Source: Candidatus Harrisonbacteria bacterium
Lineage (GTDB): Bacteria > Patescibacteriota > Minisyncoccia > UBA6257 > 02-FULL-45-10c
DNA length: 64,000 bases
Direction: 5' to 3'
Assembly: GCA_016214655.1 (NCBI GenBank)
Contig: JACROC010000002.1
Coordinates: forward strand, 3,801 to 67,800
Positions within the stretch are counted from its first letter, which is position 1; every line of letters starts with the position of its first letter. A model generated the notes under the pieces. The model did no database searches, was not told where the DNA came from, and saw only the letters and a program-made list of their open reading frames with translations. The position numbers and the translations under genes were made by a program. This document shows positions 1,328-45,040 of the stretch, in pieces.

Positions 1328-1352
1328 AAATCCCCAACTCAAAGGTTGGGGA
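1328..1352. terminator. Hairpin ccccaac-tcaaagg-ttgggg between convergent genes (bidirectional intrinsic terminator)
   Basis: Perfect 6-7 bp GC stem flanked by A-run upstream and T-rich downstream, directly after kinase stop. Confidence 0.5.
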
Positions 1353-1605
1353 GATTCGGCTGTTCAGCCGGCTTCACTCGTTTGTCAAAAATCACAGCCG
1401 CAGCCTTATCGCACATCATCTTAAATCGCTTCGGCGGTATATAATTATCAATCCGCTTTTCTGAGAGAAACATTCTATCATCCTTTCCGCGCATAAATAC
1501 CGCATCATGTAACAGCTCGCCGTTCTTTATATATTGAATCTGGACCCAGATAGCACGATTGCGGTCGTCCCGAAGCACCTCCACTACCTTTACGATCCGT
1601 TCCAT
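1339..1605 (-). CDS. Hypothetical small protein (88 aa)
   Basis: Intact ORF; TTGTCA-17-TATTAT promoter upstream on minus strand (about 1650-1680). No recognisable motif. Confidence 0.4.
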   Translation of the reverse strand: MERIVKVVEVLRDDRNRAIWVQIQYIKNGELLHDAVFMRGKDDRMFLSEKRIDNYIPPKRFKMMCDKAAAVIFDKRVKPAEQPNLPNL

Positions 1606-1663: not shown

Positions 1664-1692
1664 ACTTGACAAGCATATAGATACATGCTATA
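1664..1692 (+). promoter_or_regulatory. Sigma70-type promoter TTGACA-17bp-TATATT
   Basis: ttgaca 1664-1669, exact 17-bp spacer, tatatt 1687-1692. The same palindromic cttgacaag also gives a divergent -35 for the minus-strand gene. Confidence 0.6.
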
Positions 1693-1698
1693 TTAATT

Positions 1699-2166
1699 TG
1701 GTACCTTGAAGTTCTACGCCCCCTTTCCTCCTGGAAGCTGCAAGCAACCAGGAGGCCGCCAGCCGACGCACATTAACCGACGTACATTGGGCCTCGACCA
1801 AGGGAGGGGTTGTGCGAAAACTCCGTATAGGGCCTCACGGTAAATGCCCGAGGAGGGAACGCTCAAAACTGGCATATAACATGCCTAACATCCGTTATTG
1901 TTACCGGATGGCATGAGCGCCGTGAGGCCCGATTTTCCTGAATTCGGAGAGCGAACTACTGGTCTTGCGGGACCAGTAATCCGCTCCCCGGATGCCTCCC
2001 GAGGGAGGGAGTCCGTCGCCCCAACGCGCGATGGGCTATAAAGTAGTATGGCTGACGCCGCAGGCGAATGGCGAGCAGTCATCGTAGAAAGAGCACCCCA
2101 GGCGCAGAATGCAATCTGCGCCTGGGCCCGATCTCACCGTAAAGGCCACCTGAAAAGGTGGCCTGT
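1699..2166 (+). ncRNA. Unassigned GC-rich structured transcript (about 465 nt), promoter to terminator, no ORF >=60 aa
   Basis: GC clearly above the genome background; many local hairpins; bounded by a strong promoter and tandem terminator hairpins. No tRNA-like ends, no tmRNA tag frame, no RNase P P4 or SRP domain IV motifs found by eye. Confidence 0.4.
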
Positions 2167-2175
2167 TATTTTTTT
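2097..2175 (+). terminator. Tandem hairpins ccccaggcgcag...ctgcgcctggg and ggccacctgaaaaggtggcc followed by TGTTATTTTTTT
   Basis: Second hairpin plus T7 run is a canonical rho-independent terminator. Confidence 0.65.
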
Positions 2176-2222: not shown

Positions 2223-2537
2223 ATGAAAAATAAAAGATTTACTGCCTCCCTACCATGTCCGCAATGCCATACTATCACCTCGCGCATTTCCGATTCATTT
2301 ATAAAACACCTCATTACCAGCGGAAAACAAATTTCCGAAAGACATAAAATGCCGGCTTATATTGAATTAGACTGGCTTGGCTGTACCAAAGAAAATTGCC
2401 AAAATTATTTTCCAAAATACCGAAGCATCAGCCGCTGTCCGGTATGCAAACTGTGGTCGCTGAGATTTTCCCTAAATGCCGGCATCAGAAAATGGAACTG
2501 CAAAAATCGTGATTGCGAATGGTCATTTAGCTACTGA
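2223..2537 (+). pseudogene. Orphan transposase-type double zinc-ribbon fragment (IS1595/InsA-like N-terminal domain), no catalytic domain follows
   Basis: CPQC...CPVC...RKWNCKNRDCEWSFS matches the RYxCKxCxKTFS transposase Zn-ribbon signature. The ORF stops after 104 aa and is followed by a hairpin terminator. Confidence 0.4.
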
Positions 2538-2783: not shown

Positions 2784-2791
2784 ATTAACGT

Positions 2792-3137
2792 GGTAACTAA
2801 TAAGCCGGATTCTGTCTCTGACGCGAAGTCAGAACGATGACAATTTATCTTGACCTTACATTACTGCAAGATTCTTTGCGGCATTCCAAGCACATAACAA
2901 GTTATATGCTCGGCACAGCCTTGCACCCGGTAAGGATTTAGCCGTTTCATTCCCGCTTTCTTATCTCTATAGCGAGATTAAGCCAACTACGTTGAGATCG
3001 GGCTTTCCTGATCCTTTCGAATCAAGACGTTTCTGTTCGCACCTCTAGGTTGCCCATGATGGCGGTTAGCCATTACTTGTTACTAAGTGTCCGGACTTTC
3101 CTCTCCGGCTTTCGCCGAAGCTGTCATCTAAGTTACC
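2792..3137 (-). ncRNA. rnpB: RNase P RNA (bacterial type A-like, about 346 nt)
   Basis: Minus strand reads GGTAACTTAG...GAGAGGAAAGTCCGGACAC...AGACAGAATCCGGCTTATTAGTTACC. This gives both P4 strands (GGAAAGUCCGG and ACAGAAUCCGGCUUA), a P1 helix (GGUAACU/AGUUACC), P2 (GAUGACAG/UGUCAUC) and a P3 hairpin CUUCGGC-GAAA-GCCGGAG. Confidence 0.8.
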
Positions 3138-3143
3138 TATTAT

Positions 3144-13686: not shown

Positions 13687-13781
13687 GGGTCCATAGCTCA
13701 ATGGAGAGCGCTCCCTTGATACGGGAGAGGCACGGAATTGGATCCATCCGTGATATCCTGGTTCGAATCCAGGTGGACCCA
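13687..13781 (+). tRNA. tRNA-Ile(GAU)-like, 95 nt, with an atypical 29-nt variable arm forming a 6-bp hairpin
   Basis: GGGTCCA acceptor, D arm GCTC/GAGC, anticodon stem CTCCC/GGGAG with loop TTGATAC (GAT, A37), inserted CACGGA-ATTGGATCCA-TCCGTG hairpin, T arm CCTGG-TTCGAAT-CCAGG, discriminator A. No encoded CCA. Confidence 0.6.
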
Positions 13782-13810
13782 CTGGTACCATAGAAACCCG
13801 TAATGCGATT

Positions 13811-17612: not shown

Positions 17613-17641
17613 TAGCGCACTATTGACTTTTTTATGTAAAT
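17613..17641 (+). promoter_or_regulatory. TTGACT-17-TATATT promoter
   Basis: ttgact 17613-17618, exact 17-bp spacer, tatatt 17636-17641. Confidence 0.55.
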
Positions 17642-17647
17642 ACGATA

Positions 17648-18160
17648 TATTATTTTTATTACCAGAACTGGTAATAGAATGTTCTTTAAGGAGGCGGAGA
17701 GACAACATGAAAGATCTGGGATGGGCGAACAACTGACACCGACAGCCGCCGGAAGTCAAGCGTTGCAGGAAACTTGGCCATAGGCGCAAAGACGTGGATG
17801 TCGGGCCGCCTAATCGCGGCATCGAGCACGTGGTCACCTGCCGTGTATGCAAATACGTATACCGCTACGATTCGAGCGATTAACAGAATCGTGCTCAACT
17901 AACTAAACCGAACAAAGAGCGCAAAGGAGGTGCGAGTGGCCATACGCAATGTCATCGATGCCAAACTGGCGTCTATGAGCAATGACGATATCCGCACAAC
18001 CTGGGAAGCCCTTTAGCAAGGATGGGACAGTGGCTTCTGGAACGCGGAGCATCGCATCACCATGGACTACTGGGCGCAGGCTGTGTACTCGGAGAAATCC
18101 GTACGCAACCTCTAGCCAAAAGGGCGTCCCGAATAAAATCGGGACGCCCTTAACTTTTTT
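17648..18160 (+). ncRNA. Unassigned GC-rich transcription unit (about 510 nt) containing only micro-ORFs (9-42 aa, several with strong SD)
   Basis: Bounded by promoter and a strong terminator. Examples: AAGGAGG-N9-ATG MKDLGWANN*, AAAGGAGGTGCGA-GTG (M)AIRNVIDAKLASMSNDDIRTTWEAL*. Confidence 0.35.
18119..18160 (+). terminator. gggcgtcccg-aataaaat-cgggacgccc + TTAACTTTTTT
   Basis: 10-bp GC stem and T-run. Confidence 0.65.
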
Positions 18161-41695: not shown

Positions 41696-41736
41696 AAGAA
41701 AATTATAACACGGTAAGAAGCAATTTTATTTACCCC

Positions 41737-41813
41737 GCCCCAAAACTCACCGTATTTTGAAAAAGAAAAAGCCCCAGATGGGATAAAACCATATAGGGCT
41801 TTTGAAGTTGCTT
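41737..41813. repeat. T3 element with conserved hairpin loop
   Basis: ...GAAAAAGAAAAAGCCCCAGATGGGATAAAACCATATAGGGCTTTTG. Confidence 0.5.
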
Positions 41814-42177
41814 CTTTCTCCATTGCTTCAAAAAAGTTGATTATGCTTCCCTAGCATAAAACCTGCGACATCTTTGTATTCATTCCATTGTTTTCTGACC
41901 TTACTCTTTAAAATAGCGGGTATGGTAATTGGCCAATAAACTACGAACATCACAGCTGTTAAAGCAGTTTCCATTCTCATACCCCCTCTTCCTTTTGAGT
42001 TTATACTTCAGAGTACTGCGTATATAATATATTAAAATAATCCTTTTGTTAAAAAAAGAGCCCCGGTACTATAAAAGCTACTGGGGGAGGTGCCTGCTAC
42101 CCCCGCTCTCGAACAGGAACCTCAATATATTAATATCATATCGTTGTTAATAAAGTCAATTAAAAAAACCGCCCTTA

Positions 42178-42456
42178 TTAAGTGATTTCACGCAACATAT
42201 CAACTAAAACAGGGTCTTCTATATATCTCCAAAATCTGGGCAAAGGAGCGTAATAGGTTCGATTCCATTCGTCTCCAGAACAGGAGCATGGCAAAAATGG
42301 ATAAACGGTAATCAGTTGTTTCGTTTGAAATCCTTTGAGTAAAGGAAGCAGCTCTTCCGGCTTTAATCGGGTGCGAGCTTCCAATTCGAGAGAACTCTGG
42401 ATCCCGCCTTCTTTTAAAGCGTGAATCAGCCTGTCCACGGCCATTTTCTTTTCCAT
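42178..42456 (-). CDS. Hypothetical protein (92 aa)
   Basis: T1 cassette promoter. Confidence 0.4.
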   Translation of the reverse strand: MEKKMAVDRLIHALKEGGIQSSLELEARTRLKPEELLPLLKGFQTKQLITVYPFLPCSCSGDEWNRTYYAPLPRFWRYIEDPVLVDMLREIT

Positions 42457-42496
42457 TCTCCTTCCTTTTTCAGTTTTAAACGAACTTAAAAGTGCT

Positions 42497-42530
42497 TCTA
42501 TCTTATTTCAAGATTTACTATCTGTCAAAA
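42497..42530 (-). promoter_or_regulatory. T1 cassette promoter TTGACA-17-TAAGAT + UTR AAGTTCGTTTAAAACTGAAA
   Basis: tgtcaa 42523-42528; terminator ccgctaaagcgtaagctgaagcgg upstream (42536-42560). Confidence 0.6.
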
Positions 42531-42571
42531 GAAAAACCGCTTCAGCTTACGCTTTAGCGGTTCTATTTAAT

Positions 42572-42916
42572 TCAAAACACTACGGTCCGCACCACTTCCG
42601 AATATCCGATCATTCCTTGATTTGAACCATGAGGATTCAATAAAACCCACTCGAGATATTTCTTATAAGCCTCCTCACGACTTATTTTTCCGAGAACAAC
42701 CACATTCATTTGCTTTGAACCGCTACAATTAAAAATGATGCGATAATCATCTACCTTTTCCCACTTGACGTCCCCGCGCGTTCCATGAACTTCAGATAAG
42801 TCAGTTGTACTAGAGCTGGGATAAAATTTACTCATAAACCGCCTCTTTAACTCTGGGTTCGCGTTTATTTCATCCAGGAATTTTTTAATTCTCTTATCAT
42901 AAAGTCTCACAATCAA
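42572..42916 (-). CDS. RelE/ParE-family toxin-like protein (114 aa), no adjacent antitoxin
   Basis: N-terminal KKFLDEINANPELKRRFMSKF and C-terminal GDVKWEKVDDYRIIFNCSGSKQMNVVVLGKISREEAY fit the RelE/ParE pattern. Confidence 0.4.
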   Translation of the reverse strand: MIVRLYDKRIKKFLDEINANPELKRRFMSKFYPSSSTTDLSEVHGTRGDVKWEKVDDYRIIFNCSGSKQMNVVVLGKISREEAYKKYLEWVLLNPHGSNQGMIGYSEVVRTVVF

Positions 42917-43008
42917 CTCCTATTTATTTGTAAACTGTCTTGATAAAGTGTATTTCAAAAGCGCTCTATAGTCAACTTTCATATTCTAGAGGATACTAAA
43001 GTCAAATT

Positions 43009-43047
43009 TGGGTCACCTAGTGAATAATACAAGAACCTATTTAATCG
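43009..43047. repeat. T2 element (variant)
   Basis: TGGGTCACCTAGTGAATAATAC-AAGAAC-CTATTTAATCG. Confidence 0.45.
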
Positions 43048-43086
43048 AATTGTAAAAGAAAAAAGCGCGATTCATCGCACTTTTAG

Positions 43087-43353
43087 TTACCTCACCACAT
43101 CCCGAACTGCGGCAACAGACTCAAGTTCATTCTCGAAGAAACACCCCCCTTTCAATCCTTGCTCGTCTTGAAAAGCCACTGCATAAATAAATTCGCCGCT
43201 ATGGTCACCTCGCGCTACATTCATAACATAACCAACTCTGCCGAATAATTGCCGGCGCTCCCTGCTGAAGAAAAACTTATAAAGAAAACTGACATTGCGA
43301 ACTCGAACTTCATCAAGTACCTCAAAACGCGCTGTTTTCTGCTGTCCCATCAC
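43087..43353 (-). CDS. Hypothetical protein (88 aa)
   Basis: Intact ORF. Confidence 0.35.
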   Translation of the reverse strand: MMGQQKTARFEVLDEVRVRNVSFLYKFFFSRERRQLFGRVGYVMNVARGDHSGEFIYAVAFQDEQGLKGGCFFENELESVAAVRDVVR

Positions 43354-43416
43354 TACTCCTTATAGAAATATGCTATTCACTATATTACTAAGAATAAAAA
43401 ATAAGTCAATTGTTTT

Positions 43417-43450
43417 TCGAGTGAATAAATAGGTCTAGAACCCGCTTCAT
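43417..43450. repeat. T2 element (degenerate)
   Basis: TCGAGTGAATAAATAGGTC-TAGAAC-CCGCTTCAT. Confidence 0.4.
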
Positions 43451-43485
43451 AAATACATAAAAAAGCGATATTAAATATAGCCCTA

Positions 43486-43821
43486 TCAATCTCCAAATTT
43501 TACCAACTTGTCACCCCCTGAAAGAACATAGTCGGTTGTCACTACAAGAATCTCTCCTATAAAAATCTGAGACTTGCCATCTTCTGCACTTAACACAGAC
43601 ATTCCCGCCTTTCTTTTCAAGATATTCACCGGATTGCTTTCGTTTGGACCTATCGAAAATACGGTAATCGTATCATGTTTAGAAATACGGAGCCCCTTTG
43701 AATTCATAAAATTCCTGAGGCAGGTTATATTATCCCCGTCTATATATGTAACCGTAAAACACTTTCTTTTGTGCTCTAAAGTAATAACATTTGTCTTATG
43801 AGAATTCTTTTTAATACTCAA
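43486..43821 (-). CDS. Hypothetical protein (111 aa)
   Basis: Intact ORF. Confidence 0.35.
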   Translation of the reverse strand: MSIKKNSHKTNVITLEHKRKCFTVTYIDGDNITCLRNFMNSKGLRISKHDTITVFSIGPNESNPVNILKRKAGMSVLSAEDGKSQIFIGEILVVTTDYVLSGGDKLVKFGD

Positions 43822-43992
43822 GAACTCACTCCTTATATATCAATTAACTAAGAAAAGACTAGCAAATCTGGTATGGTTTGTCTAACGGAAAATGTTACAA
43901 CTGAAATAATGAAAACGTAATTTATTGATTTATTAAAGATTTTTTATTAGAATATGGTCAGAATAAAACCTACCTTAAAAAAGGAATACAAT

Positions 43993-44124
43993 GAAAATGA
44001 ACTGGGTGGCATTTACTGTTGTCTTCTTTGCCTTTCTTGCGGCCACCGGCAATGTACTTTCTGGATTGTTATGGGGTGTGGCTCTCGGATTACTATTTGC
44101 CAATACAAAAAGCAAATAACATTG
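43993..44124 (+). CDS. Small membrane protein (43 aa)
   Basis: AAAAAGGAATACA-ATG; MKMNWVAFTVVFFAFLAATGNVLSGLLWGVALGLLFANTKSK; terminator ccgctcatatcttgagcgg + T8. Confidence 0.4.
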
Positions 44125-44167
44125 TCCCAATCTCTCCGCTCATATCTTGAGCGGATTTTTTATTTTT

Positions 44168-44240
44168 ACACCGCCTCGCTACTCGCTATATTTCTTAAAA
44201 AAAGCCCCGAATGGGATTGAACCATTTAGGGGGCTTTGGG
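44168..44240. repeat. T3 element
   Basis: CACCGCCTCGCTACTCGCTATATTTCTTAAAAAAAGCCCCGAATGGGATTGAACCATTTAGGGGGCT. Confidence 0.5.
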
Positions 44241-44585
44241 ATCAACTGCCAGATCTTCAGGCAACGATACGAAAATTTAGCCAAGTCGGCGGCTTACCGT
44301 TCCATAATTCATCAGCGGTCAGCGACGGAAGAGAAAGCTCTTGAAATTCGTCTTCTCCGCTCTTTTTGGAAAAATACTGGATGACTGCCCCCGTCCCATC
44401 AATTCTTTATTTTTTTAGAATGAACTTCCTTCCTATATCCGATAACCACTGCCGTGGATTCTAATATACTCGAGGATGATATTACATTCGTCCCAAATCT
44501 TTTACCGCGAATTTACATCCGGCAATTTCTTCAAAAATCTTATCTTAAAAATAAATTAAGTGGTAAATCTGGTATAATATAATAA

Positions 44586-44750
44586 ATGAGCAGAAAATCA
44601 CTTATCTGGATTAGTATGCTTTTGGGCTCAACAATCGGGGGCTTCGTCCCGATACTCTGGGGCGGAGATGCACTCTCCTTTTCCTCGATACTTCTAAGCG
44701 GCATCGGAGGGATTCTTGGCATCTGGTTCGGTTTTAAATTTGGAGAATAA
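44586..44750 (+). CDS. Small membrane protein (54 aa), leaderless-like (TGGTATAAT 7 nt before ATG)
   Basis: MSRKSLIWISMLLGSTIGGFVPILWGGDALSFSSILLSGIGGILGIWFGFKFGE; extended -10 at 44566-44574. Confidence 0.4.
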   Translation: MSRKSLIWISMLLGSTIGGFVPILWGGDALSFSSILLSGIGGILGIWFGFKFGE

Positions 44751-44761
44751 AAAATAAATCA

Positions 44762-45040
44762 ATGATTAAAATCGTCGGTAATGACATTTTTAAAAACGGA
44801 CAGAAAATCGGCTGGGTACAAAGCGATGATATTTACGATTCCAGCGGCAGAAAATTGGGGTATTACTCAGGCAATGATATTTATAACCGTAGCGGCACCA
44901 AAATCGCCTACGTTGAAGGCGGCAGTATAAAGAGGGAAAATGGCTCTACGATCAGCGTTGAGCAAAATCGGCTGCGTATTACCGGTGGAAATTATTCTGA
45001 TATCTGCAGAGCTGCCATTCGTTTACTTTTTGGAGATTAA
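44762..45040 (+). CDS. Hypothetical protein with two roughly 16-aa internal repeats (DIYDSSGRKLGYYSGN / DIYNRSGTKIAYVEGG)
   Basis: Intact ORF immediately upstream of greA. Confidence 0.4.
   Translation: MIKIVGNDIFKNGQKIGWVQSDDIYDSSGRKLGYYSGNDIYNRSGTKIAYVEGGSIKRENGSTISVEQNRLRITGGNYSDICRAAIRLLFGD

Follow-up and report, generated by a model that had tools for sequence, protein, structure and literature searches.

The DNA considered here is a 64-kb window from a metagenome-assembled genome of Candidatus Harrisonbacteria (Patescibacteria, or candidate phyla radiation, CPR), and all coordinates are positions in this window. The subject is a GC-rich unit on the + strand, 1666-2175, which runs from a promoter to a terminator with ~470 nt between them; the predicted RNA is about 410-470 nt long across the two homologues known. 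On one side the unit is flanked by a divergent gene for an 88-aa protein and on the other by an open reading frame (ORF) for a 104-aa zinc-ribbon-like protein, beyond which lies rnpB, the gene for the RNA of RNase P. An earlier note, made from the sequence alone, had described the unit as a stand-alone structured RNA of unassigned class.

The TTGACA-17-TATATT promoter named in that note was borne out. It is near-consensus, with 11 of 12 matches plus an extended -10 TG at 1686-1687, and transcription is predicted to start near G1700/G1701. The -35 box, the TG and the -10 box are invariant columns in an alignment of seven orthologous loci whose surrounding sequence has diverged, and the same promoter is present in L020 (related loci are referred to by L numbers). 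The strong intrinsic terminator is likewise real on the + strand, but the 'double terminator' is not, since the upstream hairpin at 2097-2126 has no + strand U-tract.

The note's remarks on composition and self-complementarity also held. The GC content over 1700-2172 is 0.575 against a window mean of 0.417, and the richest 300-nt GC stretch of the entire 64 kb (0.583) falls in the unit. The minimum free energy is -212.6 kcal/mol, compared with -166.9 +/- 6.6 kcal/mol in dinucleotide shuffles (z -6.95), and none of 100 shuffles was equally stable; the fold of the homologue in L018 has a z of about -5.4. The RNA is assigned to the + strand because of the invariant promoter, the U-tract terminator, the absence from a promoter scan of any promoter-like site reading the unit in the - direction, and the purine-rich composition of the + strand (A 0.24 > T 0.19, G >= C). 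A purine-rich strand is typical of structured RNAs. A promoter-like site of the divergent 88-aa gene (- strand, 1672-1644) overlaps the RNA promoter, and the -35 boxes coincide almost fully (+ strand 1666-1671, - strand 1672-1667), so that two divergent promoters would share one -35 region.

Conservation, predicted structure and coding potential

One homologue of the RNA was found, at L018:162-577 (- strand), with an nhmmer E value of 6e-47. L018, a 997-nt metagenome contig of the Logan collection (run SRR22387819), encodes an 88-aa protein with 83% identity to that of the window. The gene order is the same in both: the end of a histidine-kinase gene, the 88-aa gene, the promoter, the RNA, the terminator and the zinc-ribbon gene. 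As the element is present in two independent assemblies, it is not an assembly artefact. The features of the unit and its neighbours are collected in Table 1, together with their identity to L018.

Table 1. Predicted features of the RNA unit and neighbouring genes, with nucleotide identity between the window and L018
Feature	Position	Strand	Identity to L018	Basis or remark
88-aa gene, divergent, synteny anchor	1339..1605	-	codon positions 1 / 2: 86% / 91%; third positions: 56%	8 homologues among 5.8 billion clustered proteins
Sigma-70-type promoter	1666..1694	+		TTGACA -35 at 1666-1671, 17-nt spacer, TATATT -10 at 1689-1694
Conserved 5' domain, presumed functional core	1700..1937	+	88.8% (199/224 aligned positions)	identity to L018 and RNAalifold helices
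Helix closing three-way region around hairpin 1727-1755	1721-1725 with 1800-1804	+		RNAalifold
Hairpin with inner stem	1727-1734 with 1748-1755; inner 1737-1739 with 1743-1745	+		RNAalifold
Hairpin	1806-1811 with 1819-1824	+		RNAalifold
Long-range 10-bp helix and its continuation	1831-1840 with 1920-1929; 1860-1864 with 1915-1919	+		RNAalifold
Three hairpins inside long-range helix	1847-1849/1855-1857 (loop GARGA); 1871-1874/1882-1885; 1889-1893/1906-1910	+		RNAalifold
Variable 3' region	1938..2096	+		large length differences
3' region to terminator	1938-2142	+	55% (synonymous-site level)	
23-bp hairpin (inverted repeat)	1942-1993	+		absent from L018
CCUCC-CGAG-GGAGG hairpin	around 1995-2008	+		
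Conserved island UAGUAUGG	around 2044-2051	+		
Hairpin of 11-12 bp without U-tract	2097..2126	+		conserved in L018; not a + strand terminator
Intrinsic terminator	2143..2175	+		9-bp stem with 6 G-C pairs, GAAA loop (hairpin 2143-2164), then GTTATTTTTTT U-tract
104-aa zinc-ribbon-like ORF	2223..2537	+	codon positions 1 / 2: 78% / 86%; third positions: 61%	four Cys pairs; starts ~50 nt past terminator; possible cis target
rnpB	2786-3139	-		Rfam 112.9 bits; ~610 nt from unit, zinc-ribbon ORF between

The two parts of the RNA differ in their rate of change. The 5' domain departs strongly from the synonymous sites of the flanking genes (p = 6e-11, Fisher), and its ~240 nt change about four times more slowly; the 3' region is indistinguishable from them (p = 0.8). 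Against L018 the 5' domain carries indels of 1, 1, 14, 1 and 27 nt, four of the five not multiples of three. They are placed at hairpin tips or linkers, and the 27-nt insertion lengthens the tip of hairpin 1889-1910. This comparison shows strong purifying selection on the nucleotides of the first ~240 nt, in which no reading frame is kept.

The predicted helices of the 5' domain are compatible with both sequences. All 59 predicted pairs are kept in the window and in L018, the 25 substitutions in the domain are all unpaired or pair-preserving, and the 1737-1745 stem contains one compensatory change. Single-sequence minimum-free-energy folds were uninformative: when mapped onto the other homologue they showed many broken pairs on both strands, and these folds and the 3' alignment are unreliable. 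A possible helix joining the two parts, 1823-1828 with 2046-2051, is weak and G-U-rich.

In the 3' part, hairpin 2097-2126 has 4 of 11 pairs double-compensated between the window and L018 and none broken. The terminator stem shows one double compensatory change, from GGCCACC/GGUGGCC to GGCUACC/GGUAGCC in L018, with the GAAA loop kept. Double compensatory changes total six, in three peripheral helices (4 + 1 + 1), in a comparison of two sequences. The 3' part is thus shown, as far as this pair of sequences indicates, to drift in sequence and length yet to retain its hairpins through compensation. Structured RNAs are usually recognised by this combination of a conserved core, length-variable peripheral stems and compensated helices.

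A coding gene was rejected, because indels shift every frame, no ORF is conserved and no protein homologue was found. The earlier note had stated that the unit contains no ORF of 60 aa or more. This is true of the + strand, where the longest is 47 aa, but not of the - strand, where an ATG ORF of 65 aa occupies 1885-2082; it lies in a part mostly deleted in L018 and is not conserved. On either strand, no ORF of at least 8 aa has both its start and its stop common to the window and L018. A phmmer search with the 53-aa - strand ORF, the longest across the conserved part, returned no matches among 1.84 billion protein representatives. Substitutions are without three-base periodicity, and conservation is uniform, at the level of codon positions 1 and 2 of the flanking genes. 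An 11-aa ORF with its ATG at 1844 has its first 9 codons in common with L018, including one synonymous change, and no Shine-Dalgarno sequence precedes this ATG.

Database searches and the locus in related lineages

The window was searched with cmscan against the 4227 families of Rfam 15, as the earlier note had proposed. At the gathering score only rnpB and five tRNAs were found, and no family was assigned to the unit, its 5' domain or the homologue. A permissive search (E <= 10) with the unit, the 5' domain alone and L018 gave only weak matches to terminator-like small RNAs, none of them consistent between the sequences. The note had failed by eye to match the unit to transfer-messenger RNA (tmRNA), signal recognition particle (SRP) RNA or 6S RNA, and cmscan and ARAGORN, which found no tmRNA in the window, agree. 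Neither of the two outcomes that it had set against its proposal, a known family or a lack of conservation and expression together with a conserved short protein gene, was found.

Individual candidates were also considered and rejected. There are no acceptor-stem ends, T-arm or CCA as in tmRNA, the 3' end being a terminator hairpin followed by U's, and a tag frame would have to be among ORFs of at least 8 aa, of which none is conserved between the homologues. For SRP RNA there was no model match at E <= 10 and no match to helix 8 in the unit, the 5' domain or L018. 6S RNA is a single hairpin of ~180 nt, while the unit is multi-branched and 410-470 nt long, and no 6S match was seen at E <= 10. 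OLE, GOLLD, ROOL, HEARO/omega RNA and raiA were rejected for want of a covariance-model match and of an adjacent IscB, TnpB or reverse-transcriptase gene.

Several collections were searched for further copies. Scans of the JGI metagenome collection used one conserved block only (GCCCGANGAGGGAACGCTC) and gave 68 matches, all in GC-rich coding genes. These are chance matches, because the block translates to P-D-E-G-T-L, which recurs in apparent ABC-type ATPase genes; the ATPase label is our own reading of the flanking sequence and not a tool result. Scans of IMG/VR with other conserved blocks gave nothing past chance 16-mer matches, and blastn against phage and plasmid collections gave no match. 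A covariance model of the 5' domain, run over the window and 16 syntenic loci, detected the two known copies only. The literature on structured RNAs in Patescibacteria or Harrisonbacteria yielded nothing relevant.

Related loci were collected through neighbouring genes. The RNA is in none of the syntenic loci L002-L017, found through an RNase H-family neighbour, and in only one (L018) of the loci L018-L023 and L105, found through the 88-aa gene. Relatives sought through a RecJ-like neighbour gave only a 23%-identical Saccharibacteria locus. In the place of the RNA, L004, L006 and L020 have a gene for a 73-aa two-helix membrane protein behind the same promoter, and L016 has one of 70 aa. The 73-aa gene is followed in L004, L006 and L020 by a terminator at the same position as that of the unit, and the zinc-ribbon gene comes next in L006, L016 and L020. 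No trace of the 73-aa ORF was found at the locus in the window or in L018, nor anywhere in the 64-kb window. Because the promoter and the first ~12 nt of the transcript (GTaCcTTgAAa) are common to all lineages, the RNA gene appears to have replaced the protein cargo of an older, conserved promoter-terminator cassette, and not the cassette itself.

Other structured sequences occur at this locus in the relatives. Between the same promoter and the 73-aa ORF lies a GC-rich, strongly folded element of ~230 nt (L020:9590-9830 and L019:1-175, both - strand), which has no Rfam match at the gathering score, is unrelated in sequence to the window RNA and may be an undescribed cis-regulatory leader. Where transcription of the 73-aa gene starts, a conserved long AT-rich hairpin (GGGGGCAAATTATAG...CTATAACTTGCCCC) follows immediately in L006:12290-12355 (- strand), L020:9830-9893 (- strand), L016 and L022. 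A long purine/pyrimidine-strand hairpin (CCCUUUCUUCUUUCCUUACC... with ...GGUGAGGGAGGAAGAAA), absent from L004 and the window, is found at L006:11700-11990 (- strand), in the spacer that separates the zinc-ribbon gene from the 73-aa ORF. The leaders and spacers of L020, L019 and L006 have no similarity to the window RNA. The locus is evidently a place of structured-RNA sequence turnover.

Nothing about function could be read from the flanking proteins. The AlphaFold2 model of the 88-aa protein (pLDDT 87) has four strands and one helix and no significant fold match in the PDB, PC4-like single-stranded DNA binders appearing only at TM scores of 0.2-0.3. Its gene adjoins the cassette with or without the RNA. 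The model of the zinc-ribbon protein is poor (pLDDT 58) and not usable, and neither protein has a Pfam, NCBIfam or PHROG assignment. A homologous-protein search found none for the zinc-ribbon protein, though syntenic homologues exist at the same position in L006, L020, L016 and L018. Its ORF is without a Shine-Dalgarno sequence. In L018 the codon aligned to window 2223 (L018:114, - strand) is ATA rather than ATG, and a stop in the same frame closely precedes it; possible reasons are a rare start codon, an error in sequencing, or loss of translation of the zinc-ribbon gene in that lineage.

The earlier note had placed the unit next to rnpB and distinct from it. Distinct it is, but the two are not adjacent, being ~610 nt apart with the 104-aa ORF between them. 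Like the unit, the RNase P RNA is ~350-450 nt long and GC-enriched, has a conserved core with variable stems and lies in the same 1.5-kb neighbourhood; the two are nevertheless encoded separately, on opposite strands, and the window RNA has neither similarity to the RNase P model nor its GAGGAAAGUCCGG core. The rnpB genes of L004, L006, L016 and L020 (e.g. L020:8160-8530, downstream of the RNase H-family gene) are visible by eye through a GAGGAAAGTCCGGAC core. All four are below the gathering score of RNaseP_bact_a, and the window copy is only 13 bits above it (112.9 vs 100); CPR rnpB genes are therefore easily missed by standard annotation.

Interpretation of the unit

The proposal of a stand-alone structured RNA of unassigned class is supported by these results. 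In our estimation there is an even chance that the unit encodes a stand-alone non-coding RNA (ncRNA) of ~410-470 nt, highly structured and trans-acting, which belongs to an undescribed family of very narrow distribution in Candidatus Harrisonbacteria. More tentatively, and with a probability clearly short of even, it could be the founding member of a new large (~0.45 kb) RNA class, a trans-acting ribonucleoprotein scaffold, ribozyme or self-assembling RNA that displaced a membrane-protein gene. The strong invariant promoter would start the transcript near 1700 and the intrinsic terminator would end it at about 2172, giving a discrete RNA of ~0.45 kb. The multi-helix 5' core may bind protein, RNA or a ligand through its invariant loops and junctions, or may itself be catalytic. 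Stabilising the transcript would be the main task of the variable 3' hairpins and of the terminator hairpin, the latter also ending it. The RNA would have taken over an older expression cassette that drives the 73-aa membrane protein in related lineages.

The unit probably represents a new family within a known kind, the orphan large structured bacterial RNAs. A long GC-rich intergenic region is the signature used by the GC-IGR discovery pipeline for large ncRNAs (PMC6429828, PMC8632094, PMC11109978), and the unit has exactly this signature in common with OLE, the raiA motif, ROOL, GOLLD and the smtA motif. It resembles them in its size of several hundred nucleotides, its multi-branching and its GC-richness relative to the genome. 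It also has, as they do, its own promoter and terminator, a conserved core, variable peripheral stems and a function not obvious from context. It differs in having no sequence or structure match in Rfam 15 and no association with phage or with a partner gene, and in occupying a cassette that is elsewhere protein-coding. These families have hundreds to thousands of members, whereas the window RNA is known from two genomes of one CPR clade.

Genomes of the CPR or Patescibacteria are small, and selection presses them to shed DNA. A non-coding gene of 0.45 kb is therefore likely to matter to the cell if it is retained in such a genome, has one of the best promoters of the window and shows about fourfold slower change in its core than at silent sites. 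With this unit, the few large bacterial RNAs that have no assigned function gain a credible candidate, in a phylum not covered by systematic ncRNA surveys; the 50-genome GC-IGR survey makes no mention of CPR. Across sister lineages, one promoter-terminator cassette has three cargoes: a lone protein gene, a protein gene preceded by different structured leaders, and an RNA on its own. This comparison is a useful handle on the origin of new RNA genes, for which replacement of a protein gene is an unusual route, and if the reading is true, an RNA gene took the place of a protein gene in an ultra-reduced genome. With two sequences and no cultured organism, the practical value is so far limited.

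Several observations weigh against a trans-acting RNA of this kind. Family membership amounts to two sequences only, and no true homologue was found in the JGI metagenome collection (one block), IMG/VR or the phage and plasmid collections. The comparative check that the earlier note had proposed gave one diverged homologue and conservation at the nucleotide level, but with these two sequences 52 of the 59 core pairs are invariant, and the covariation measures do not exceed those of shuffles (240 of 500). The predicted core structure would thus be founded on thermodynamics and conservation, not on covariation. In silico the - strand folds slightly better than the + strand (-224 vs -212.6 kcal/mol). 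Both flanking genes are also present in relatives that lack the RNA, so that there is no RNA-specific partner protein. Furthermore, the promoter scan found no promoter-like site in the 50-nt spacer between the terminator and the zinc-ribbon ORF, which leaves room for a role in cis.

Such a role would make the unit a long 5' leader acting in cis on the zinc-ribbon gene, riboswitch-like or a protein-dependent attenuator, with the 2143-2164 terminator regulated and the 5' domain as its sensor. We regard this as unlikely, though it carries more weight than the remaining alternatives. The order of promoter, structured RNA, terminator and an ORF within 50 nt is that of attenuating leaders and riboswitches; the spacer, with 76% identity to L018, is better conserved than neutral sites, and both known copies of the RNA precede the zinc-ribbon gene (n = 2). 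In L020 a longer spacer precedes the gene and contains a weak promoter-like site; the window lacks such a spacer. Relatives have other structured leaders behind the same promoter, such as the GC-rich ones of ~230 nt in L019 and L020. In both genomes, moreover, pairing is possible between the invariant 5' end, GGUACCUU, and the terminator's 3' arm; it could act as an anti-terminator, and the single difference, U-G in the window and U-A in L018, keeps the pair. However, this pairing is a bulged one of 8 bp and could be fortuitous. In relatives without the RNA the zinc-ribbon gene still lies behind the same terminator, which there simply ends the 73-aa gene, and the missing Shine-Dalgarno sequence of the zinc-ribbon ORF and its ATA in L018 also speak against this reading. 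No riboswitch model was matched. The stand-alone gene is favoured, moreover, by analogy with known leaders: the conserved domain lies ~200 nt before the terminator, across fast-changing, length-variable sequence, which does not seem to be the normal layout of aptamer and expression platform, and the 410-470 nt of the RNA are 2-10 times the size of known aptamers. The unit is far larger than typical riboswitch aptamers. The discussion of the smtA motif argues likewise from size against a riboswitch (PMC11109978).

The other alternatives fare less well than the leader. It is improbable, in our view, that the unit is a functionless leftover of GC-rich DNA, foreign or mobile, which disrupted the 73-aa gene on insertion and is now selfish or decaying and incidentally transcribed. 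The segment did take the place of a gene found in relatives, in which this locus is a hot spot for variable inserts. In GC content it exceeds the genome by about 16 points, its occurrence in two genomes makes for an extremely narrow distribution, and its 3' half changes at the neutral rate. Against this, the 5' 240 nt have changed far less than synonymous sites while the neighbouring protein has fallen to 83% identity, and compensatory changes keep the hairpins in the fast-changing part. There are no terminal repeats, target duplication or transposase around the unit, no second copy in the 64-kb window (nhmmer) and no phage, plasmid or viral match. A highly divergent tmRNA, SRP RNA or 6S RNA missed by covariance models in CPR is very improbable. 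Rfam thresholds do miss divergent CPR RNAs, as the rnpB genes show, and the check for genuine tmRNA, SRP and 6S genes covered the 64-kb window rather than the rest of the genome. The tmRNA gene (ssrA) is also comparable in length (about 350-450 nt), is a GC-rich stand-alone gene with promoter and terminator and is often unannotated in divergent genomes. But the permissive searches matched none of these families, the T-arm, tRNA-like domain, CCA end, conserved tag frame and SRP helix 8 are wanting, and the branching is unlike the 6S hairpin. Close relatives, moreover, lack the element at the locus and have a protein gene instead, which is unexpected for a universal RNA. Least credible of all is that the unit encodes one or more small proteins; several ORFs of 30-65 aa exist on both strands and the 11-aa ORF at 1844 shares its first codons with L018, but the frameshift indels in the conserved part (1, 1, 14 and 1 nt), the lack of a shared start and stop, of a Shine-Dalgarno sequence and of three-base periodicity, and the empty phmmer search all stand against it.

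Other features of the window

A second GC-rich unit from promoter to terminator is present at 17623-18160 on the + strand. Its promoter, TTGACT-17-TATATT, occupies 17623-17651, and its terminator, of 13 bp, 18120-18151. It has a GC content of 0.53-0.54, a fold z of -5.04 and no Rfam match, and bears no similarity to the RNA of 1700-2172. Its longest + strand ORF is 60 aa, and two tiny ORFs have Shine-Dalgarno sequences (9 aa, ATG at 17708; 28 aa, GTG at 17930).

The tRNA-Arg(ACG) at 13687-13782 (+ strand) is 96 nt long, about 24 nt beyond the 71-position model that it matches end to end, which suggests that it carries an insertion or intron. The window is otherwise densely coding, except for 3.3 kb at 41700-45040, which contain short ORFs only (60-114 aa, most of them - strand) and lack genes of at least 120 aa; this stretch is perhaps a small island of mobile or phage origin.

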